A DNA stretch of 64,000 bases. Origin: TPA_inf: Saccharomyces. Lineage: Eukaryota. The translations under genes were made by a program, and so were the position numbers. Shown piece by piece: positions 20,383 through 50,825 of the stretch. The notes under the pieces were generated by a model. That model did not search any database and was not told the DNA's origin. It saw only the letters and a program-made list of their open reading frames with translations. The stretch's first letter is position 1. Every line of letters starts with the position of its first letter. The stretch is from the NCBI GenBank assembly GCA_000146045.2, contig BK006945.2, forward strand, positions 608,001 through 672,000, read 5' to 3'.

Positions 20383-20497
20383 GGTTGTTTGGCCGAGCGG
20401 TCTAAGGCGCCTGATTCAAGAAAATATCTTGACTGCAGTTAACTGTAGGAATACTCAGGTATCGTAAGATGCAAGAGTTCGAATCTCTTAGCAACCA
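20383..20497 (+). tRNA. tRNA-Leu(CAA) gene with a ~32-33 nt intron 3' of the anticodon (intron approx 20421-20453)
   Basis: GGTTGTTTGGCCGAGCGGTCTAAGGCGCCTGATTCAAG...CAGGTATCGTAAGATGCAAGAGTTCGAATCTCTTAGCAACCA matches the tRNA-Leu3 cloverleaf with D-loop, long variable arm, T-loop GTTCGAATC and acceptor stem GGTTGTT/AGCAACC; T5 terminator at 20501-20505. Confidence 0.9.
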
Positions 20498-20505: not shown

Positions 20506-20683
20506 GCCTTCCGAAAATTTTGAAGCTACATATTAGCACTCTTCTTCAGATGTCAGACAACGTGCAGCATCTTTTTTTCCTACCATTGAATATATATATA
20601 GTAATTACGGCAACCGTTTATATAAAAATTCAAAAGATTAAATATTTTAATATATTAGTGTCTGGTTTAAAAGTCATACTTCT

Positions 20684-38414: not shown

Positions 38415-41400
38415 ATGTCGAATACCCCTTATAATTCATCTGTGCCTTCCATTGCATCCATGACCCAGTCTTCGGTCTCAAGAAGTCCTAACATGCATAC
38501 AGCAACTACGCCCGGTGCCAACACCAGCTCTAACTCTCCACCCTTGCACATGTCTTCAGATTCGTCCAAGATCAAGAGGAAGCGTAACAGAATTCCGCTC
38601 AGTTGCACCATTTGTCGGAAAAGGAAAGTCAAATGTGACAAACTCAGACCACACTGCCAGCAGTGCACTAAAACTGGGGTAGCCCATCTCTGCCACTACA
38701 TGGAACAGACCTGGGCAGAAGAGGCAGAGAAAGAATTGCTGAAGGACAACGAATTAAAGAAGCTTAGGGAGCGCGTAAAATCTTTAGAAAAGACTCTTTC
38801 TAAGGTGCACTCTTCTCCTTCGTCTAACTCCTTGAAAAGTTACAACACTCCCGAGAGCAGCAACCTGTTTATGGGTAGCGATGAACACACCACCCTTGTT
38901 AATGCAAATACAGGCTCTGCTTCCTCTGCCTCGCATATGCATCAGCAACAACAGCAACAGCAGCAACAGGAACAACAACAAGACTTTTCCAGAAGTGCGA
39001 ACGCCAACGCGAATTCCTCGTCCCTTTCTATCTCAAATAAATATGACAACGATGAGCTGGACTTAACTAAGGACTTTGATCTTTTGCATATCAAAAGTAA
39101 CGGAACCATCCACTTAGGTGCCACCCACTGGTTGTCTATCATGAAAGGTGACCCGTACCTAAAACTTTTGTGGGGTCATATCTTCGCTATGAGGGAAAAG
39201 TTAAATGAATGGTACTACCAAAAAAATTCGTACTCTAAGCTGAAGTCAAGCAAATGTCCCATCAATCACGCGCAAGCGCCGCCTTCTGCCGCTGCCGCCG
39301 CTACCAGAAAATGTCCTGTTGATCACTCCGCGTTTTCGTCTGGCATGGTGGCCCCAAAGGAGGAGACTCCTCTTCCTAGGAAATGTCCAGTTGACCACAC
39401 CATGTTCTCTTCGGGAATGATTCCTCCCAGAGAGGACACTTCGTCCCAGAAGAGGTGTCCCGTTGACCACACCATGTATTCCGCAGGAATGATGCCGCCC
39501 AAGGACGAGACACCTTCCCCATTTTCCACTAAAGCTATGATAGACCATAACAAGCATACAATGAATCCGCCTCAGTCAAAATGTCCTGTGGACCATAGAA
39601 ACTATATGAAGGATTATCCCTCTGACATGGCAAATTCTTCTTCGAACCCGGCAAGTCGTTGCCCCATTGACCATTCAAGCATGAAAAATACAGCGGCCTT
39701 ACCAGCTTCAACGCACAATACCATCCCACACCACCAACCACAGTCCGGATCTCATGCTCGTTCGCATCCCGCACAAAGCAGGAAACATGATTCCTACATG
39801 ACAGAATCTGAAGTCCTCGCAACACTTTGTGAGATGTTGCCACCAAAGCGCGTCATCGCATTATTCATCGAGAAATTCTTCAAACATTTATACCCTGCCA
39901 TTCCAATCTTAGATGAACAGAATTTCAAAAATCACGTGAATCAAATGCTTTCGTTGTCTTCGATGAATCCCACAGTTAACAACTTTGGTATGAGCATGCC
40001 ATCTTCATCTACACTAGAGAACCAACCCATAACACAAATCAATCTTCCAAAACTTTCCGATTCTTGTAACTTAGGTATTCTGATAATAATCTTGAGATTG
40101 ACATGGCTATCCATACCTTCTAATTCCTGCGAAGTCGACCTGGGAGAAGAAAGTGGCTCATTTTTAGTGCCCAACGAATCTAGCAATATGTCTGCATCTG
40201 CATTGACCTCGATGGCTAAAGAAGAATCACTTCTGCTAAAGCATGAGACACCGGTCGAGGCACTGGAGCTATGTCAAAAATACTTGATTAAATTCGATGA
40301 ACTTTCTAGTATTTCCAATAACAACGTTAATTTAACCACGGTGCAGTTTGCCATTTTTTACAACTTCTATATGAAAAGTGCCTCTAATGATTTGACTACC
40401 TTGACAAATACCAACAACACTGGCATGGCCAATCCTGGTCACGATTCCGAGTCTCACCAGATCCTATTGTCCAATATTACTCAAATGGCCTTTAGTTGTG
40501 GGTTACACAGAGACCCTGATAATTTTCCTCAATTAAACGCTACCATTCCAGCAACCAGCCAGGACGTGTCTAACAACGGGAGCAAAAAGGCAAACCCTAG
40601 CACCAATCCAACTTTGAATAACAACATGTCTGCTGCCACTACCAACAGCAGTAGCAGATCTGGCAGTGCTGATTCAAGAAGTGGTTCTAACCCTGTGAAC
40701 AAGAAGGAAAATCAGGTTAGTATCGAAAGATTTAAACACACTTGGAGGAAAATTTGGTATTACATTGTTAGCATGGATGTTAACCAATCTCTTTCCCTGG
40801 GGAGCCCTCGACTACTAAGAAATCTGAGGGATTTCAGCGATACAAAGCTACCAAGTGCGTCAAGGATTGATTATGTTCGCGATATCAAAGAGTTAATCAT
40901 TGTGAAGAATTTTACTCTTTTTTTCCAAATTGATTTGTGTATTATTGCTGTATTAAATCACATTTTGAATGTTTCTTTAGCAAGAAGCGTGAGAAAATTT
41001 GAACTGGATTCATTGATTAATTTATTGAAAAATCTGACCTATGGTACTGAGAATGTCAATGATGTAGTGAGCTCCTTGATCAACAAAGGGTTATTACCAA
41101 CTTCGGAAGGTGGTTCTGTAGATTCAAATAATGATGAAATTTACGGTCTACCGAAACTACCCGATATTCTAAACCATGGTCAACATAACCAAAACTTGTA
41201 TGCTGATGGAAGAAATACTTCTAGTAGTGATATAGATAAGAAATTGGACCTTCCTCACGAATCTACAACGAGAGCTCTATTCTTTTCCAAGCATATGACA
41301 ATTAGAATGTTGCTGTACTTATTGAACTACATTTTGTTTACTCATTATGAACCAATGGGCAGTGAAGATCCTGGTACTAATATCCTAGCTAAGGAGTACG

Positions 41401-42923
41401 CTCAAGAGGCATTAAATTTTGCCATGGATGGCTACAGAAACTGCATGATTTTCTTCAACAATATCAGAAACACCAATTCACTATTCGATTACATGAATGT
41501 TATCTTGTCTTACCCTTGTTTGGACATTGGACATCGTTCTTTACAATTTATCGTTTGTTTGATCCTGAGAGCTAAATGTGGCCCATTGACTGGTATGCGT
41601 GAATCATCGATCATTACTAATGGTACATCAAGTGGATTTAATAGTTCGGTAGAAGATGAGGACGTCAAAGTTAAACAAGAATCTTCTGATGAATTGAAAA
41701 AAGACGATTTCATGAAAGATGTAAATTTGGATTCAGGCGATTCATTAGCAGAGATTCTAATGTCAAGAATGCTGCTATTTCAAAAACTAACAAAACAACT
41801 ATCAAAGAAGTACAACTACGCTATTCGTATGAACAAATCCACTGGATTCTTTGTCTCTTTACTAGATACACCTTCAAAGAAATCAGACTCGAAATCGGGT
41901 GGTAGTTCATTCATGTTGGGTAATTGGAAACATCCAAAGGTTTCAAACATGAGCGGATTTCTTGCTGGTGACAAAGACCAATTACAGAAATGCCCCGTGT
42001 ACCAAGATGCGCTGGGGTTTGTTAGTCCAACCGGTGCTAATGAAGGTTCTGCTCCGATGCAAGGCATGTCCTTACAGGGCTCTACTGCTAGGATGGGAGG
42101 GACCCAGTTGCCACCAATTAGATCATACAAACCTATCACGTACACAAGTAGTAATCTACGTCGTATGAATGAAACGGGTGAGGCAGAAGCTAAGAGAAGA
42201 AGATTTAATGATGGCTATATTGATAATAATAGTAACAACGATATACCTAGAGGAATCAGCCCAAAACCTTCAAATGGGCTATCATCGGTGCAGCCACTAT
42301 TATCGTCATTTTCCATGAACCAGCTAAACGGGGGTACCATTCCAACGGTTCCATCGTTAACCAACATTACTTCACAAATGGGAGCTTTACCATCTTTAGA
42401 TAGGATCACCACTAATCAAATAAATTTGCCAGACCCATCTAGAGATGAAGCATTTGACAACTCCATCAAGCAAATGACGCCTATGACAAGTGCATTCATG
42501 AATGCTAATACTACAATTCCAAGTTCAACTTTAAACGGGAATATGAACATGAATGGAGCTGGAACTGCGAATACAGATACAAGTGCCAACGGCAGTGCTT
42601 TATCGACACTGACAAGCCCACAAGGCTCAGACTTAGCATCCAATTCTGCTACACAGTATAAACCTGACTTAGAAGACTTTTTGATGCAAAATTCTAACTT
42701 TAATGGGCTAATGATAAATCCTTCCAGTCTGGTAGAAGTTGTTGGTGGATACAACGATCCTAATAACCTTGGAAGAAATGACGCGGTTGATTTTCTACCC
42801 GTTGATAATGTTGAAATTGATGGTGTTGGAATAAAAATCAACTATCATCTACTAACTAGTATTTACGTTACTAGTATATTATCATATACGGTGTTAGAAG
42901 ATGACGCAAATGATGAGAAATAG
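38415..42923 (+). CDS. HAP1: Heme-activated Zn2Cys6 transcription factor Hap1, Ty1-disrupted allele (1502 aa; last 32 codons plus stop, roughly 42825-42923, read from the Ty1 LTR)
   Basis: Zn2Cys6 cluster (CTICRKRKVKCDKLRPHCQQC) at 38604-38693, polyQ, six K/R-CP-V/I-DH heme-regulatory motifs at 39252-39674 and a seventh at 41988-42005; the ORF continues 100 bp into the 5' LTR sequence that begins at 42824. Confidence 0.95.
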   Translation: MSNTPYNSSVPSIASMTQSSVSRSPNMHTATTPGANTSSNSPPLHMSSDSSKIKRKRNRIPLSCTICRKRKVKCDKLRPHCQQCTKTGVAHLCHYMEQTWAEEAEKELLKDNELKKLRERVKSLEKTLSKVHSSPSSNSLKSYNTPESSNLFMGSDEHTTLVNANTGSASSASHMHQQQQQQQQQEQQQDFSRSANANANSSSLSISNKYDNDELDLTKDFDLLHIKSNGTIHLGATHWLSIMKGDPYLKLLWGHIFAMREKLNEWYYQKNSYSKLKSSKCPINHAQAPPSAAAAATRKCPVDHSAFSSGMVAPKEETPLPRKCPVDHTMFSSGMIPPREDTSSQKRCPVDHTMYSAGMMPPKDETPSPFSTKAMIDHNKHTMNPPQSKCPVDHRNYMKDYPSDMANSSSNPASRCPIDHSSMKNTAALPASTHNTIPHHQPQSGSHARSHPAQSRKHDSYMTESEVLATLCEMLPPKRVIALFIEKFFKHLYPAIPILDEQNFKNHVNQMLSLSSMNPTVNNFGMSMPSSSTLENQPITQINLPKLSDSCNLGILIIILRLTWLSIPSNSCEVDLGEESGSFLVPNESSNMSASALTSMAKEESLLLKHETPVEALELCQKYLIKFDELSSISNNNVNLTTVQFAIFYNFYMKSASNDLTTLTNTNNTGMANPGHDSESHQILLSNITQMAFSCGLHRDPDNFPQLNATIPATSQDVSNNGSKKANPSTNPTLNNNMSAATTNSSSRSGSADSRSGSNPVNKKENQVSIERFKHTWRKIWYYIVSMDVNQSLSLGSPRLLRNLRDFSDTKLPSASRIDYVRDIKELIIVKNFTLFFQIDLCIIAVLNHILNVSLARSVRKFELDSLINLLKNLTYGTENVNDVVSSLINKGLLPTSEGGSVDSNNDEIYGLPKLPDILNHGQHNQNLYADGRNTSSSDIDKKLDLPHESTTRALFFSKHMTIRMLLYLLNYILFTHYEPMGSEDPGTNILAKEYAQEALNFAMDGYRNCMIFFNNIRNTNSLFDYMNVILSYPCLDIGHRSLQFIVCLILRAKCGPLTGMRESSIITNGTSSGFNSSVEDEDVKVKQESSDELKKDDFMKDVNLDSGDSLAEILMSRMLLFQKLTKQLSKKYNYAIRMNKSTGFFVSLLDTPSKKSDSKSGGSSFMLGNWKHPKVSNMSGFLAGDKDQLQKCPVYQDALGFVSPTGANEGSAPMQGMSLQGSTARMGGTQLPPIRSYKPITYTSSNLRRMNETGEAEAKRRRFNDGYIDNNSNNDIPRGISPKPSNGLSSVQPLLSSFSMNQLNGGTIPTVPSLTNITSQMGALPSLDRITTNQINLPDPSRDEAFDNSIKQMTPMTSAFMNANTTIPSSTLNGNMNMNGAGTANTDTSANGSALSTLTSPQGSDLASNSATQYKPDLEDFLMQNSNFNGLMINPSSLVEVVGGYNDPNNLGRNDAVDFLPVDNVEIDGVGIKINYHLLTSIYVTSILSYTVLEDDANDEK

Positions 42924-43157
42924 TCATCTAAATTAGTGGAAGCTGAAACGCAAGGATTGATAATGTAATAGGATCAATGAATATTAACATATAAAACGAT
43001 GATAATAATATTTATAGAATTGTGTAGAATTGCAGATTCCCTTTTATGGATTCCTAAATCCTCGAGGAGAACTTCTAGTATATTCTGTATACCTAATATT
43101 ATAGCCTTTATCAACAATGGAATCCCAACAATTATCTCAACACCCACACATTTCTCA
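42824..43157 (+). repeat. Ty1 5' LTR (delta), 334 bp
   Basis: Direct repeat of 48410-48743; contains the TYA ATG at LTR nt 294. Confidence 0.95.
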
Positions 43158-44439
43158 TGGTAGCGCCTGTGCTTCGGTTACTTCTAAGGAAGTCCACACA
43201 AATCAAGATCCGTTAGACGTTTCAGCTTCCAAAACAGAAGAATGTGAGAAGGCTTCCACTAAGGCTAACTCTCAACAGACAACAACACCTGCTTCATCAG
43301 CTGTTCCAGAGAACCCCCATCATGCCTCTCCTCAACCTGCTTCAGTACCACCTCCACAGAATGGGCCGTACCCACAGCAGTGCATGATGACCCAAAACCA
43401 AGCCAATCCATCTGGTTGGTCATTTTACGGACACCCATCTATGATTCCGTATACACCTTATCAAATGTCGCCTATGTACTTTCCACCTGGGCCACAATCA
43501 CAGTTTCCGCAGTATCCATCATCAGTTGGAACGCCTCTGAGCACTCCATCACCTGAGTCAGGTAATACATTTACTGATTCATCCTCAGCGGACTCTGATA
43601 TGACATCCACTAAAAAATATGTCAGACCACCACCAATGTTAACCTCACCTAATGACTTTCCAAATTGGGTTAAAACATACATCAAATTTTTACAAAACTC
43701 GAATCTCGGTGGTATTATTCCGACAGTAAACGGAAAACCCGTACGTCAGATCACTGATGATGAACTCACCTTCTTGTATAACACTTTTCAAATATTTGCT
43801 CCCTCTCAATTCCTACCTACCTGGGTCAAAGACATCCTATCCGTTGATTATACGGATATCATGAAAATTCTTTCCAAAAGTATTGAAAAAATGCAATCTG
43901 ATACCCAAGAGGCAAACGACATTGTGACCCTGGCAAATTTGCAATATAATGGCAGTACACCTGCAGATGCATTTGAAACAAAAGTCACAAACATTATCGA
44001 CAGACTGAACAATAATGGCATTCATATCAATAACAAGGTCGCATGCCAATTAATTATGAGAGGTCTATCTGGCGAATATAAATTTTTACGCTACACACGT
44101 CATCGACATCTAAATATGACAGTCGCTGAACTGTTCTTAGATATCCATGCTATTTATGAAGAACAACAGGGATCGAGAAACAGCAAACCTAATTACAGGA
44201 GAAATCTGAGTGATGAGAAGAATGATTCTCGCAGCTATACGAATACAACCAAACCCAAAGTTATAGCTCGGAATCCTCAAAAAACAAATAATTCGAAATC
44301 GAAAACAGCCAGGGCTCACAATGTATCCACATCTAATAACTCTCCCAGCACGGACAACGATTCCATCAGTAAATCAACTACTGAACCGATTCAATTGAAC
44401 AATAAGCACGACCTTCACCTTAGGCCAGGAACTTACTGA
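43117..44439 (+). CDS. TYA: Ty1 TYA (Gag), 440 aa
   Basis: [17 protein letters not shown]... Gag sequence; +1 frameshift heptamer CTTAGGC at 44419-44425 near the 3' end. Confidence 0.9.
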
Positions 44440-47400
44440 ATCTACGGTAAATCACACTAATCATTCTGATGATGAACTCCCTGGACACCTCCTTCTCGAT
44501 TCAGGAGCATCACGAACCCTTATAAGATCTGCTCACCACATACACTCAGCATCATCTAATCCTGACATAAACGTAGTTGATGCTCAAAAAAGAAATATAC
44601 CAATTAACGCTATTGGTGACCTACAATTTCACTTCCAGGACAACACCAAAACATCAATAAAGGTATTGCACACTCCTAACATAGCCTATGACTTACTCAG
44701 TTTGAATGAATTGGCTGCAGTAGATATCACAGCATGCTTTACCAAAAACGTCTTAGAACGGTCTGACGGCACTGTACTTGCACCTATCGTAAAATATGGA
44801 GACTTTTACTGGGTATCTAAAAAGTACTTGCTTCCATCAAATATCTCCGTACCCACCATCAATAATGTCCATACAAGTGAAAGTACACGCAAATATCCTT
44901 ATCCTTTCATTCATCGAATGCTTGCGCATGCCAATGCACAGACAATTCGATACTCACTTAAAAATAACACCATCACGTATTTTAACGAATCAGATGTCGA
45001 CTGGTCTAGTGCTATTGACTATCAATGTCCTGATTGTTTAATCGGCAAAAGCACCAAACACAGACATATCAAAGGTTCACGACTAAAATACCAAAATTCA
45101 TACGAACCCTTTCAATACCTACATACTGACATATTTGGTCCAGTTCACAACCTACCAAATAGTGCACCATCCTATTTCATCTCATTTACTGATGAGACAA
45201 CAAAATTCCGTTGGGTTTATCCATTACACGACCGTCGCGAGGACTCTATCCTCGATGTTTTTACTACGATACTAGCTTTTATTAAAAACCAGTTTCAGGC
45301 CAGTGTCTTAGTTATACAAATGGACCGTGGTTCTGAGTATACTAACAGAACTCTCCATAAATTCCTTGAAAAAAAAATGGTATAACTCCATGCTATACAA
45401 CCACAGCGGATTCCCGAGCACATGGAGTCGCTGAACGGCTAAACCGTACCTTATTAGATGACTGCCGTACTCAACTGCAATGTAGTGGTTTACCGAACCA
45501 TTTATGGTTCTCTGCAATCGAATTTTCTACTATTGTGAGAAATTCACTAGCTTCACCTAAAAGCAAAAAATCTGCAAGACAACATGCTGGCTTGGCAGGA
45601 CTTGATATCAGTACTTTGTTACCTTTCGGTCAACCTGTTATCGTCAATGATCACAACCCTAACTCCAAAATACATCCTCGTGGCATCCCAGGCTACGCTC
45701 TACATCCGTCTCGAAACTCTTATGGATATATCATCTATCTTCCGTCCTTAAAGAAGACAGTAGATACAACTAACTATGTTATTCTTCAGGGCAAGGAATC
45801 CAGATTAGATCAATTCAATTACGACGCACTCACTTTCGATGAAGACTTAAACCGTTTAACTGCTTCATATCATTCGTTCATTGCGTCAAATGAGATCCAA
45901 GAATCCAATGATCTTAACATAGAATCTGACCATGACTTCCAATCCGACATTGAACTACATCCTGAGCAACCGAGAAATGTCCTTTCAAAAGCTGTGAGTC
46001 CAACCGATTCCACACCTCCGTCAACTCATACTGAAGATTCGAAACGTGTTTCTAAAACCAATATTCGCGCACCCAGAGAAGTTGACCCCAACATATCTGA
46101 ATCTAATATTCTTCCATCAAAGAAGAGATCTAGCACCCCCCAAATTTCCAATATCGAGAGTACCGGTTCGGGTGGTATGCATAAATTAAATGTTCCTTTA
46201 CTTGCTCCCATGTCCCAATCTAACACACATGAGTCGTCGCACGCCAGTAAATCTAAAGATTTCAGACACTCAGACTCGTACAGTGAAAATGAGACTAATC
46301 ATACAAACGTACCAATATCCAGTACGGGTGGTACCAACAACAAAACTGTTCCGCAGATAAGTGACCAAGAGACTGAGAAAAGGATTATACACCGTTCACC
46401 TTCAATCGATGCTTCTCCACCGGAAAATAATTCATCGCACAATATTGTTCCTATCAAAACGCCAACTACTGTTTCTGAACAGAATACCGAGGAATCTATC
46501 ATCGCTGATCTCCCACTCCCTGATCTACCTCCAGAATCTCCTACCGAATTCCCTGACCCATTTAAAGAACTCCCACCGATAAATTCTCGTCAAACTAATT
46601 CCAGTTTGGGTGGTATTGGTGACTCTAATGCCTATACTACTATCAACAGTAAGAAAAGATCATTAGAAGATAATGAAACTGAAATTAAGGTATCACGAGA
46701 CACATGGAATACTAAGAATATGCGTAGTTTAGAACCTCCGAGATCGAAGAAACGAATTCACCTGATTGCAGCTGTAAAAGCAGTAAAATCAATCAAACCA
46801 ATACGGACAACCTTACGATACGATGAGGCAATCACCTATAATAAAGATATTAAAGAAAAAGAAAAATATATCGAGGCATACCACAAAGAAGTCAATCAAC
46901 TGTTGAAGATGAAAACTTGGGACACTGACGAATATTATGACAGAAAAGAAATAGACCCTAAAAGAGTAATAAACTCAATGTTTATCTTCAACAAGAAACG
47001 TGACGGTACTCATAAAGCTAGATTTGTTGCAAGAGGTGATATTCAGCATCCTGACACTTACGACTCAGGCATGCAATCCAATACCGTACATCACTATGCA
47101 TTAATGACATCCCTGTCACTTGCATTAGACAATAACTACTATATTACACAATTAGACATATCTTCGGCATATTTGTATGCAGACATCAAAGAAGAATTAT
47201 ACATAAGACCTCCACCACATTTAGGAATGAATGATAAGTTGATACGTTTGAAGAAATCACTTTATGGATTGAAACAAAGTGGAGCGAACTGGTACGAAAC
47301 TATCAAATCATACCTGATACAACAATGTGGTATGGAAGAAGTTCGTGGATGGTCATGCGTATTTAAAAACAGTCAAGTGACAATTTGTTTATTCGTAGAT

Positions 47401-48387
47401 GATATGGTATTGTTTAGCAAAAATCTAAATTCAAACAAAAGAATTATAGAGAAGCTTAAGATGCAATACGACACCAAGATTATAAATCTAGGCGAAAGTG
47501 ATGAGGAAATTCAATATGACATACTTGGCTTAGAAATCAAATATCAAAGAGGTAAATACATGAAATTAGGTATGGAAAACTCATTAACTGAGAAAATACC
47601 CAAATTAAACGTACCTTTGAATCCAAAAGGAAGAAAACTTAGCGCTCCAGGTCAACCAGGTCTTTATATAGACCAGGATGAACTAGAAATAGATGAAGAT
47701 GAATACAAAGAGAAGGTACATGAAATGCAAAAGTTGATTGGTCTAGCTTCATATGTTGGATATAAATTTAGATTTGACTTACTATACTACATCAACACAC
47801 TTGCTCAACATATACTATTCCCCTCTAGGCAAGTTTTAGACATGACATATGAGTTAATACAATTCATGTGGGACACTAGAGATAAACAATTAATATGGCA
47901 CAAAAACAAACCTACCAAGCCAGATAATAAACTAGTCGCAATAAGCGATGCTTCATATGGTAACCAACCATATTACAAGTCACAAATTGGTAACATTTTC
48001 CTACTCAACGGAAAAGTGATTGGAGGAAAGTCGACAAAGGCTTCGTTAACATGCACTTCAACTACAGAAGCAGAAATACACGCAGTCAGTGAAGCTATAC
48101 CGCTATTGAATAACCTCAGTCACCTTGTGCAAGAACTTAACAAGAAACCAATTATTAAAGGCTTACTTACTGATAGTAGATCAACGATCAGTATAATTAA
48201 GTCTACAAATGAAGAGAAATTTAGAAACAGATTTTTTGGCACAAAGGCAATGAGACTTAGAGATGAAGTATCAGGTAATAATTTATACGTATACTACATC
48301 GAGACCAAGAAGAACATTGCTGATGTGATGACAAAACCTCTTCCGATAAAAACATTTAAACTATTAACAAACAAATGGATTCATTAG
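44423..48387 (+). pseudogene. TYB: Ty1 TYB (Pol: PR-IN-RT-RNaseH) reading frame, disrupted by a frameshift at the A9 run 45369-45377 inside the integrase catalytic core
   Basis: The +1 frame after CTTAGGC encodes protease and integrase (HHCC, D..D) up to ...[10 protein letters not shown] with a stop at 45383-45385; the remaining IN/RT/RNaseH ([20 protein letters not shown]...KWIH) continues in a different frame (track ORF 45535-48387). Confidence 0.8.
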
Positions 48388-48409
48388 ATCTATTACATTA
48401 TGGGTGGTA

Positions 48410-48743
48410 TGTTGGAATAAAAATCAACTATCATCTACTAACTAGTATTTACGTTACTAGTATATTATCATATACGGTGTTAGAAGATGACGCAAATGAT
48501 GAGAAATAGTCATCTAAATTAGTGGAAGCTGAAACGCAAGGATTGATAATGTAATAGGATCAATGAATATTAACATATAAAACGATGATAATAATATTTA
48601 TAGAATTGTGTAGAATTGCAGATTCCCTTTTATGGATTCCTAAATCCTCGAGGAGAACTTCTAGTATATTCTGTATACCTAATATTATAGCCTTTATCAA
48701 CAATGGAATCCCAACAATTATCTAATTACCCACAAATTTCTCA
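48410..48743 (+). repeat. Ty1 3' LTR (delta), 334 bp
   Basis: Identical to the 5' LTR over the first ~309 bp; 4 mismatches in the last 25 bp. Confidence 0.95.
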
Positions 48744-48748
48744 GATGG

Positions 48749-48791
48749 ACTAGTAGATTTTTATAGAGCAGATTTTCCAATATGGGAGTGA
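48749..48791 (+). other. HAP1: Displaced original 3' end of the HAP1 coding sequence (13 codons + TGA) separated from the gene by the Ty1 insertion
   Basis: Immediately after the 3' TSD, in the HAP1 frame: (D G) L V D F Y R A D F P I W E stop; joining it to 42823 recreates ...VDNVEIDGLVDFYRADFPIWE*. Confidence 0.8.
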
Positions 48792-48933
48792 TGCGGTTTG
48801 TTTATGTATAAATAGAAAGGGACATATTTTTATTATTATTATTTTAGTTATTTAGCATGTATGTTATTTTATCGGTGAATTGTAATGATCGAATAATAAT
48901 TGGAGGTTGAAGAAGTTGCAAAAAATATTTACT

Positions 48934-49006
48934 TGGACGAGTCCGGAATCGAACCGGAGACCTCTCCCATGCTAAGGGAGCGCGCTACCGACTACGCCAC
49001 ACGCCC
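48934..49006 (-). tRNA. tRNA-Ala(AGC)
   Basis: Reverse complement GGGCGTGTGGCGTAGTCGGTAGCGCGCTCCCTTAGCATGGGAGAGGTCTCCGGTTCGATTCCGGACTCGTCCA: G3:U70 acceptor pair, anticodon AGC, T-loop GGTTCGATTCC; downstream T-run (plus-strand AAAAAA 48920-48925). Confidence 0.92.
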
Positions 49007-49022
49007 AATTTTCTTGTTGTCT

Positions 49023-49448: not shown

Positions 49449-49775
49449 TGTTGGAATGAAGGCCTAGTATTGTCTATTGACTAATATTCATCTTACTAGT
49501 ATATTATCATATACAGTGTAAGAAGATGGCATAAAGATTGAGAACCAGTCATCAGACTAATGAAAGCTGAAATGCAAGGACTGATAATGTAATGGGATAA
49601 TGAAATATATAAAACGGAAGGAGAAATAACCGTGATATTATTATGTAGATTTACCGACTCCACTTGGAGGATTTCTCTATTCTCGAGGGAAACTTGGTAT
49701 ATTCGTACACCTAATATTATAGCTCTTGATAACAATGAAATTTCAACAATTATTCACTCAACCCTCAAGTGTATA
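49449..49775 (+). repeat. Solo delta (Ty1/Ty2 LTR), diverged, same orientation as the Ty1
   Basis: TGTTGGAATGAAGG...ACTAGTATATTATCATATAC.GTGT.AGAAGATG...GAAAGCTGAAATGCAAGGA.TGATAATGTAAT.GGAT.AATGAA...CTCGAGG..AACTT..TATATTC.TA.ACCTAATATTATAGC..TT.A.AACAATG is colinear with the Ty1 LTR at 42824; ~440 bp upstream of tRNA-Ala; 3' end approximate. Confidence 0.65.
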
Positions 49776-50825
49776 TCGCCAAGATCCTAATCACCCCTCT
49801 CTGGTGGCCTTCCCTCATTGTTTTTACACAGAACAAGAATCCATAAAATCAAGATATTGGGAACAATTCATTGTCTTAGGAACAAGTTTTTATAATTTAG
49901 TTTCATTAGCCTATTGTAACTTCTTGTTTTTTTTTTTTATTTTGGCTGGCAAAACAAGAAGTATAAAGAAGTTACCACTGCTATAACGTATATCTTAAAT
50001 CAAGTGGGCAATTCTTCGAATAAACTTAGAGGCGCTGAAGAAAGAACCGCTCAATTAGTTCGATCATACAAAATACAGATATTGCGCTGTGTATTATCAT
50101 TACGGAAAGTGTGATATAAACAATGCTGTGTTGTATTCGGTCTTTTTTTTCCGCCTGGAGATTGTCGTTTTTGTTTTTTTTTCTCGTGTAGCTGCAGTTA
50201 TCATCGTTTTGCATGTCTGTTCTGTCGGTGAAGCCGATCTCATGGCACTTCGCTTTGATACCGTAAAGAATCTTCTTCATTAATACGGCACTGCAAGGCG
50301 ATATCTATCTCTGGGGTTAGGACTGATAAATAGGTACTTATCAGTTATCACTAGAGACGAACTGTTTACGTTTTGAAGCTCGACAGCAGGGGTTCTTAAC
50401 GGGCGTCGGCCTAGACCTCACCTTGCGAGAAATTTTTAGTTCATATCCAGGGGATGGTGAATGGTTGGATCTGACGAAGCCACGGTAAGGGCAAGGCTTT
50501 GCGCATGCACTGGCCACTATGCATACCATATATAAATAGATAATCAAGCGTATAGAAAACGACATGCTAAGTTATTTTACTCAGTGTTAGGTCTCTTAGT
50601 ATTTGCGTCTGAAAAGATCTTAGCTCTGTCTTTGACTCTATCACTTATTTTTAAGAGGTTCTCTATTCGTCAGTGATAGAAATAGCATTTTGACCCGCAC
50701 GACATTGGTTAATAAGAGTACTTTTCCACGTGTTTCGATTGCCTTTATTTTTAGCATACTTGAAAATAATATTATCGTGAGATTTAGGTAAAATATACCA
50801 CATATCAAGAGAAAGAGAAGTAAGA

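Follow-up and report, generated by a model that had tools for sequence, protein, structure and literature searches.

The closest described system to the locus studied here is the hap1-Ty1 allele of the Saccharomyces cerevisiae laboratory strain S288C, reportedly described by Gaisne et al. in 1999 (Curr Genet 36:195). In its published description, the protein lacks 13 native amino acids and carries 32 amino acids encoded by Ty1, and the hypoxic repression of ERG genes that is exerted by wild-type HAP1 is not exerted by hap1-Ty1 (PMC11580460). Among more than 100 sequenced strains the insertion has been reported only in S288c, with reduced function (PMC5978988), and the allele has been classed as a partial loss of function, the upc2 ecm22 combination being synthetically lethal in S288C only (PMC7397035). 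HAP1 is also a recurrent large-effect QTL in crosses with S288C (PMC5978988; PMC12997974), and deletion of the element, YLRWTy1-3, raises the fitness of S288C in competition, and the same paper states that the activation domain at the C-terminus is disrupted by the insertion (PMC12997974). Several laboratories have genotyped or deleted the insertion experimentally, and it has served for PCR genotyping of chromosome XII.

The severity of the allele is disputed in the literature, where the descriptions range from null, the term used by one paper, through "partially compromises" to the report that BY4741, which carries hap1-Ty1, is slightly more susceptible to fluconazole than its own hap1 deletion (PMC11580460). 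This greater azole susceptibility than the deletion hints at some altered function over pure loss, and positive selection for lower ergosterol-gene expression has been argued by some authors (PMC5978988; PMC3511429). An LTR retrotransposon likewise alters the output of a host gene in the Ty changes at CTR3, as cited in PMC3511429, but the Ty1 in HAP1 lies within coding sequence and thereby gives a translated gene-LTR fusion instead of a promoter action.

Here we analysed a stretch of DNA of 64,000 nucleotides (the window), for which a previous sequence-only reading had proposed that it carries the known S288C-lineage hap1 allele. We confirm that the insertion in the window is this long-known, weakened allele (HAP1/CYP1, YLR256W, YLRWTy1-3), and that it is real and already known, the identity being drawn from the published description and from a 99.995% match to one NCBI assembly. 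In both cases Ty1 occupies the 3' end of the ORF and is co-oriented with the gene, with 13 residues lost and 32 gained and with a product of 1,502 amino acids compared to the 1,483 of the native protein, and no difference from the S288C allele is detectable from the published description. The loss and gain of residues (PMC11580460) and the reported restriction to S288c (PMC5978988) bear out the earlier attribution; the description of the allele as partially defective agrees with the majority wording of the literature, one paper saying null, and the S288C origin of the window rests on the literature together with the near-identity to that assembly. [quoted passage not shown]

The chimeric hap1-Ty1 ORF runs from 38415 to 42923 on the forward strand and encodes 1,502 amino acids, with native HAP1 accounting for residues 1-1470 and the LTR encoding residues 1471-1502. 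In translation, its C-terminus reads ...VDNVEIDG followed by VGIKINYHLLTSIYVTSILSYTVLEDDANDEK*. The LTR stretch inside this ORF, at 42824-42923, comprises 100 nucleotides with the stop included, as the sequence-only reading had stated. The T at 42824 supplies the third base of a synonymous glycine codon, so Gly1470 is unchanged, and the 32 LTR-encoded codons that had been predicted (VGIK...DDANDEK) lie in full at 42825-42920 and extend with the TAG stop over 42825-42923 of the forward strand.

HAP1, which has 1,483 codons when intact, is therefore interrupted after Gly1470, and its orphaned native end is found beyond the 3' LTR as 13 codons (LVDFYRADFPIWE) plus a TGA at 48750-48791 on the forward strand, the same tail being present in an independent allele, P0001. 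Translation of 48744-48791 gives DGLVDFYRADFPIWE*. These codons had been described as intact and in the HAP1 frame, which holds, but as starting at 48749, which has to be corrected to 48750 since the base at 48749 still belongs to the glycine codon, as its third position. The orphaned tail stays in the absolute frame of HAP1 because the element plus one duplication amounts to 5,925 nucleotides, or 3 x 1,975. The target-site duplication claimed earlier is perfect: the strandless 5-bp copies of GATGG flank the element at 42819-42823 on the left and at 48744-48748 on the right, a match with a chance of about 1/1024, and the site is present as a single copy in an independent public contig with the empty site, L001. 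When the element and one GATGG were excised in silico, the flanks joined, as anticipated, into one continuous ORF of 1,483 amino acids that matches the uninterrupted P0001 of contig L001.

This empty site contains one GATGG and no LTR, with 10 mismatches over 1,759 aligned columns, and the protein P0001 encoded there ends in ...EIDGLVDFYRADFPIWE. The occupied site is found in a chromosome-scale assembly, L002, in which 20,508 of 20,509 bases are identical to the window, and the exact chimeric protein of 1,502 amino acids is encoded on 3 chromosome-sized public contigs.

HAP1 identity and the lost C-terminal residues

The naming of the gene as HAP1, a heme-activated Zn2Cys6 transcription factor, is supported by the restored length of 1,483 amino acids and by its motifs. 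An N-terminal Zn2Cys6 binuclear cluster was detected by Pfam (Zn_clus, residues 63-96, E = 3e-08), with the pattern CX2CX6CX6CX2CX6C at residues 64-93, and the heme motifs comprise 6 copies of [KR]CP[VI][DN]H at residues 281-416 and a distal KCPVYQ at 1193, which together we take to be HRM1-7. Residues 1309-1483 of the restored protein are acidic, with 20 D/E versus 6 K/R; the native end of this acidic activation region is absent from the ORF of the window, its last 13 residues having been swapped out by the mutation itself.

To assess conservation of this end, we used 23 clusters of distant HAP1 relatives (at most 52% identical) taken from a representative protein library. A W[E/D/N] terminus is present in 13 of the 23 clusters, compared with a chance of about 0.13% per protein, and is missing in the other 10, so the motif is not universal; a DFLPIDN-like box just ahead of the insertion point is kept in 11. 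Judged from these relatives, the lost tail is a conserved aromatic/acidic terminal motif. A homologue search with the restored C-terminal 400 amino acids returned one protein only, from a collection that is evidently poor in yeast proteins; this hit sufficed for the comparison with the empty site, whereas conservation had to be judged from the representative library.

The inserted element and its Pol reading frame

The insert spans 5,920 bp at 42824-48743 and has the same orientation as HAP1. Its 5' LTR (delta; 42824-43157) and 3' LTR (48410-48743), both on the forward strand, are each 334 bp long with TG...CA ends (TGTTGG...TTCTCA), and the two are identical at 330 of 334 bases, the differences being clustered in U5 at LTR positions 315, 317, 318 and 326, where the two variants read CTCAACACCCACACATTTCTCA and CTAATTACCCACAAATTTCTCA. 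Directly 3' of the 5' LTR lies the primer-binding site TGGTAGCGCC (43158-43167, forward strand), presumably complementary to the 3' end of the initiator tRNA-Met, and adjoining the 3' LTR is GGGTGGTA (48402-48409, forward strand), which we take, from established Ty1 knowledge, to be the polypurine tract. The TYA (Gag) ORF (43117-44439, forward strand) starts within the 5' LTR and encodes 440 amino acids (Pfam TYA, E = 9.7e-234); its overlap with TYB carries the heptamer CTTAGGC (44419-44425, forward strand), which we assume to be the Ty1 site of programmed +1 frameshifting. In a protein look-up for further copies of Ty1, the TYA protein of this element occurred solely at the HAP1 locus.

The Pol domains follow in the order rve and then RVT_2, and the integrase is identical residue for residue to the Ty1 integrase of PDB 7z0h_W over chain residues 1-170 and 170-635, that is, on either side of the frameshift. 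These features place the insert in Ty1 (Ty1/copia, Pseudoviridae), in line with the identification made from the sequence before, which the TYA domain and the match to PDB 7z0h support. A Ty2 identity was considered and rejected, as the integrase matches the solved Ty1 integrase and the call rests on that Ty1 match. The element resembles canonical Ty1 (e.g. Ty1-H3) in its 334-bp LTRs, TG...CA ends, 5-bp duplication, primer-binding site, polypurine tract, TYA and CTTAGGC, and in the order of protease, integrase and reverse transcriptase in Pol.

[quoted passage not shown] An uninterrupted TYB is not present in the element, since the frame shifts by +2 at this run and meets a stop at 45383-45385. 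The first part of TYB (44399-45385, forward strand; Pfam Pol_BBD and rve), with the protease and the ~170 N-terminal residues of the integrase, thus ends in a premature TAA, and the remaining Pol (45370-48387, forward strand; Pfam RVT_2), from integrase residue ~169 through reverse transcriptase and RNase H, is open but in the frame of TYA. This Pol defect was absent from the sequence-only reading. The Ty1 in HAP1 is accordingly a defective, non-autonomous member of Ty1 and not a non-member, unable to move by itself because the frameshift cuts Pol short within the integrase, and the hap1 allele is stable. Recombination between the LTRs would yield a solo LTR and would leave the chimeric protein unchanged: nucleotides 1-300 are identical in both copies, so a solo-LTR derivative is predicted to encode the same protein.

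Proposed mechanism and alternative explanations

The explanation that we favour, and of which we are nearly certain, is that Ty1 integration into HAP1 accounts for the structure; the weakened activation would be due mainly to the terminal motif having been removed or masked. The element would have integrated by the normal integrase route at codon 1470/1471 of HAP1, in the orientation of the gene, duplicating the 5-bp target GATGG, and translation of HAP1 now enters the 5' LTR and reads 32 codons before the stop. The resulting protein retains the Zn2Cys6 DNA-binding domain, the full set of 7 heme-regulatory motifs and the greater part of the acidic activation region at its C-terminus, but loses the conserved terminal motif of 13 residues and gains an unrelated tail of 32. 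As the molecular defect behind the loss of function we infer mainly the removal or masking of this motif, which would weaken activation and would likewise underlie the loss of hypoxic ERG repression known from the literature. An altered mRNA 3' end, presumably formed at the termination signals of the LTR, may make a second contribution.

A different weighting of these 2 contributions is conceivable though unlikely, namely that the defect acts mainly via a transcript that ends in the LTR or reads into Ty1, so that its 3' UTR, stability or translation is changed and less Hap1 is made, the swap of the tail being minor. The U3-R of Ty1 carries the 3'-end formation signals of the element; the native 3' UTR and terminator of HAP1 are displaced by ~5.9 kb, and, Ty1 and HAP1 being co-oriented, any transcript that enters the element runs into an entire U3-R. 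The junction could also suffer transcriptional interference, given that PMC11258251, citing Morillon 2002, reports YLRWTy1-3 as the most highly expressed Ty1. The strong conservation of the 13 lost residues argues instead that their loss matters, and one paper blames the disrupted C-terminal activation domain (PMC12997974). We regard as less probable still that the chimeric Hap1 is neomorphic or antimorphic, binding DNA and heme while mis-regulating its targets and perhaps being favoured in laboratory growth. The intact DNA-binding and heme motifs would permit such behaviour, with which the slight excess of fluconazole susceptibility of BY4741 over the hap1 deletion and the loss of hypoxic ERG repression (PMC11580460) agree, as does the selection argued for reduced ergosterol-gene expression (PMC5978988; PMC3511429). 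However, the gap to the deletion is small, removal of the Ty1 increases the fitness of S288C in competition (PMC12997974) and most papers describe a partial loss of function (PMC5978988; PMC7397035).

Ty1 copies are a classic cause of assembly collapse and mis-joins, and the junction could in principle stem from an assembly or chimeric-read artefact, or from a 5-bp repeat that was already there; we give this a negligible probability. Neither junction shows any irregularity, the LTRs having canonical TG...CA ends and being flanked by the 5-bp duplication, and the insertion has been genotyped or deleted experimentally in several laboratories. An assembly artefact was rejected on the empty site of L001 together with the identical interrupted structure in L002, which includes the element-specific A9 run and U5 differences, and a pre-existing GATGG repeat was rejected because the empty site holds a single copy.

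The hap1-Ty1 allele is a practical caveat and not a discovery: work in S288C, BY and FY on respiration, heme and oxygen sensing, sterol synthesis, azole susceptibility and expression QTLs carries a weakened HAP1, and the insertion doubles as a lineage marker. What is added here, that is, the conservation of the terminal motif, the Pol-defective element and the solo LTR predicted to encode the same protein, could guide a structure-function test of the Hap1 C-terminus.

The tRNA neighbourhood of the insertion

The Ty1 target site lies 184 nucleotides past the 3' end of a tRNA-Ala(AGC) gene (48933-49007, reverse strand), which is the sole Pol III gene within 20 kb of the site. A search with ARAGORN and Rfam for a further Pol III gene relative to which the insertion would be upstream gave none in the window: apart from this tRNA-Ala gene at 48.9 kb, the programs detected one tRNA gene with an intron, at 20.4 kb. 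The element therefore sits downstream of the tRNA gene and outside the usual window of ~1 kb upstream of such genes. Ty1 targeting prefers the upstream side of tRNA genes (PMC5911963), which is a tendency and not a defining requirement, and a site downstream of the nearest tRNA gene is atypical of it.

The downstream position and the 4 clustered U5 differences, which adjoin the primer-binding site, are oddities of this supposedly recent and lineage-specific insertion that would not be predicted for ordinary Ty1 integration. As a speculative scenario, to which we assign a low probability, the cDNA could have been made from 2 different co-packaged Ty1 RNAs, with a heteroduplex at the U5/primer-binding-site end, and could have inserted away from the Pol III-tethered window upstream of the gene; independently of this, the conserved terminal ...DF..xW-E/D motif of HAP1-family proteins could be a functional unit in its own right that happens to be missing from this allele. 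An old, diverged solo delta LTR (49449-49780, forward strand; ~77-82% identical) lies beyond the tRNA-Ala gene, upstream of it.

A Ty1 element interrupts the last codons of HAP1

The chimeric HAP1-LTR ORF spans 38415-42923 on the plus strand and encodes 1,502 aa, with a C-terminus reading ...DFLPVDNVEIDG, then VGIKINYHLLTSIYVTSILSYTVLEDDANDEK, then a TAG stop. The host protein contains a fungal Zn2Cys6 cluster (pattern at residues 64-93, within a Pfam Zn_clus match at 63-96), six [KR]CP[VI][DN]H motifs at 281-416 with a seventh, KCPVYQ, at 1193, and an acidic stretch over its C-terminal 175 residues (20 D/E versus 6 K/R), which is the known architecture of HAP1. A short polyglutamine run in its N-terminal part (QQQQQQQQEQQQ, residues ~176-188) is likely a site of strain-to-strain length polymorphism.

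From 42824 the sequence is that of a 334-bp direct repeat, opening with TGTTGGAATAAAAATC... and present as a 5' LTR (42824-43157) and a 3' LTR (48410-48743). The 5 bp that flank the pair on the outside, 42819-42823 and 48744-48748, both read GATGG. Exactly 100 nt of the repeat, 42824-42923 including the stop, lie inside the HAP1 ORF; the T at 42824 is a synonymous third base of a Gly codon, and 32 full codons (42825-42920) are encoded by the LTR. These observations confirmed the sequence-only reading, which had proposed that the ORF enters an LTR by 100 bp from 42824, gains 32 LTR-derived residues and precedes an element bounded by a perfect 5-bp GATGG duplication. Translation of 48744-48791 yields DGLVDFYRADFPIWE*, therefore the native 13 codons and stop occupy 48750-48791, and this orphaned tail is in the HAP1 frame because the element plus one GATGG measures 5,925 nt (3 x 1,975). 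The tail is thus intact and in frame as had been claimed, with its start corrected from 48749, which still belongs to the preceding Gly codon at its third position, to 48750, an inconsequential one-base shift.

The LTR ends are TG...CA, a primer-binding site (TGGTAGCGCC) adjoins the 5' LTR and a polypurine tract (GGGTGGTA) lies immediately 5' of the 3' LTR. The insert carries a TYA ORF of 440 aa (Pfam TYA, E = 9.7e-234), the +1 frameshift heptamer CTTAGGC at 44419, and Pol domains arranged as in copia elements, with rve before RVT_2. Along the aligned stretches its translated integrase shows no residue difference from the Ty1 integrase chain in PDB 7z0h. The insert is a Ty1 element in the same orientation as HAP1.

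Empty and occupied sites identify the S288C allele

In-silico deletion of 42824-48748 produced a 4,452-nt ORF that encodes 1,483 aa and whose only stop is the terminal one, showing that the two flanks join into a continuous HAP1 3' end, as anticipated. When the restored C-terminal 400 aa were used as a homology query, one independent protein was retrieved, P0001, from the Logan assembly of SRR24955558, which ends in ...VDNVEIDGLVDFYRADFPIWE and has a few substitutions relative to the window's protein. The contig that encodes it, L001 (1,759 nt), aligns collinearly to the excised window through the junction (1,759 aligned columns, 10 mismatches and one 2-nt gap away from the junction), where GATGG is single copy; no LTR sequence was found in this aligned contig. 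L001 is thus a true empty site, and the GATGG duplication was made by the insertion. The 2-nt gap, at L001 position ~77 (window ~41239-41240), falls within the HAP1 coding region and accounts for the late start of the called L001 protein (523 aa); it reflects a frameshift allele carried by the SRR24955558 sample or else a mistake in the assembly.

Three public contigs of chromosome size encode a protein identical to the 1,502-aa product. One of them, L002 (GCA_016858165.1, CM029100.1), is an independent chromosome assembly with the same structure and matches the window around HAP1 at 20,508 of 20,509 bases, which excludes an assembly artefact.

The window allele is the published S288C hap1-Ty1, YLR256W with YLRWTy1-3, in agreement with the sequence-only reading, which had recognised the known hap1 allele of the S288C lineage. 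Since the literature describes precisely this allele, the finding is right but not new. The loss of 13 native residues and gain of 32 Ty1-encoded ones is described in PMC11580460. Among more than 100 sequenced strains only S288c carries the insertion (PMC5978988), and that paper cites Gaisne et al. 1999 for its reduced function. The element is named YLRWTy1-3 in PMC12997974, where its deletion raises S288C fitness and the defect is ascribed to a disrupted C-terminal activation domain. Loss of function is partial according to PMC7397035; PMC4831757 treats the allele as null. In a 2025 preprint the insertion is typed by PCR to mark chromosome XII. The finding serves as a strain-background caveat and a lineage marker; the remaining loose ends are few and minor.

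Loss of a conserved terminal motif

In the chimeric protein the DNA-binding domain and every heme motif are intact, as is most of the acidic region at the C-terminus; the 13 residues LVDFYRADFPIWE (4 aromatic, 3 acidic) are lost and 32 unrelated ones gained. P0001 was scanned, without a profile, against 1.84 billion representative proteins, which gave 23 relatives, one per distinct 50%-identity cluster. The final two residues are W followed by E/D/N (a terminal ...DF..xW-E/D/N box) in 13 of them, against a chance expectation of about 0.13% per protein, and a DFLPIDN-like box lies 20-41 residues before the C-terminal end in 11 of the 23. In restored HAP1 both boxes lie between residues 1459 and 1483 (window 42789-42823 plus 48749-48788), and the insertion point is exactly between them; the intervening C-terminal half aligns poorly among HAP1-family proteins.

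Loss or masking of this terminal motif would be the main cause of the weakened HAP1 function. An altered mRNA 3' end may also contribute to the defect: the insertion has moved the native HAP1 terminator to a distance of 5.9 kb, and since Ty1 LTRs carry their own 3'-end signals, read-in transcripts should meet these. There is also some room for altered function of the chimeric protein, in that BY4741 is reported to be slightly more azole-susceptible than its own hap1 deletion (PMC11580460). The allele would revert only through precise excision; because LTR nt 1-300 are identical between the copies, a solo LTR left by LTR-LTR recombination would encode the same 1,502-aa protein.

Pol defect, LTR divergence and target site of the element

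An A9 run at 45369-45377, where the solved Ty1 integrase sequence implies A7, causes a +2 frameshift leading to HKFLEKKMV* (stop at 45383-45385) after ~170 integrase residues, and Pol downstream, including RT and RNase H, is out of frame and moved to the TYA frame, with effects over 44399-48387. The run is also present in L002. This Ty1 is thus non-autonomous and Pol-defective, yet PMC11258251 describes it as the most expressed Ty1 of the genome. Its TYA protein, sought at further loci, was found only at the HAP1 locus.

The two LTRs are identical save at positions 315, 317, 318 and 326 (43138, 43140, 43141 and 43149 in the 5' LTR; 48724, 48726, 48727 and 48735 in the 3' LTR), clustered in U5 beside the primer-binding site (CTCAACACCCACAC versus CTAATTACCCACAA). 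These differences are unexpected for an insertion considered recent and lineage-specific, and they would fit recombination or gene conversion better than point mutation; a cDNA that was recombinant or heteroduplex may also account for them.

Ty1 usually targets a ~1-kb window upstream of Pol III genes (PMC5911963). The insertion in HAP1 lies outside it, on the downstream side of a tRNA-Ala(AGC) gene (48933-49007, minus strand) whose 3' end is 184 nt away, and ARAGORN and Rfam found no other Pol III gene within 20 kb of the target site. On the upstream side of this tRNA gene, at about 49449-49780, an old solo delta LTR that shares about 77-82% identity with the Ty1 LTRs is what remains of an earlier insertion at the canonical position. 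A further tRNA gene, 115 nt long and at 20383-20497 on the plus strand, was identified by Rfam and missed by ARAGORN in bacterial mode; it presumably contains an intron.
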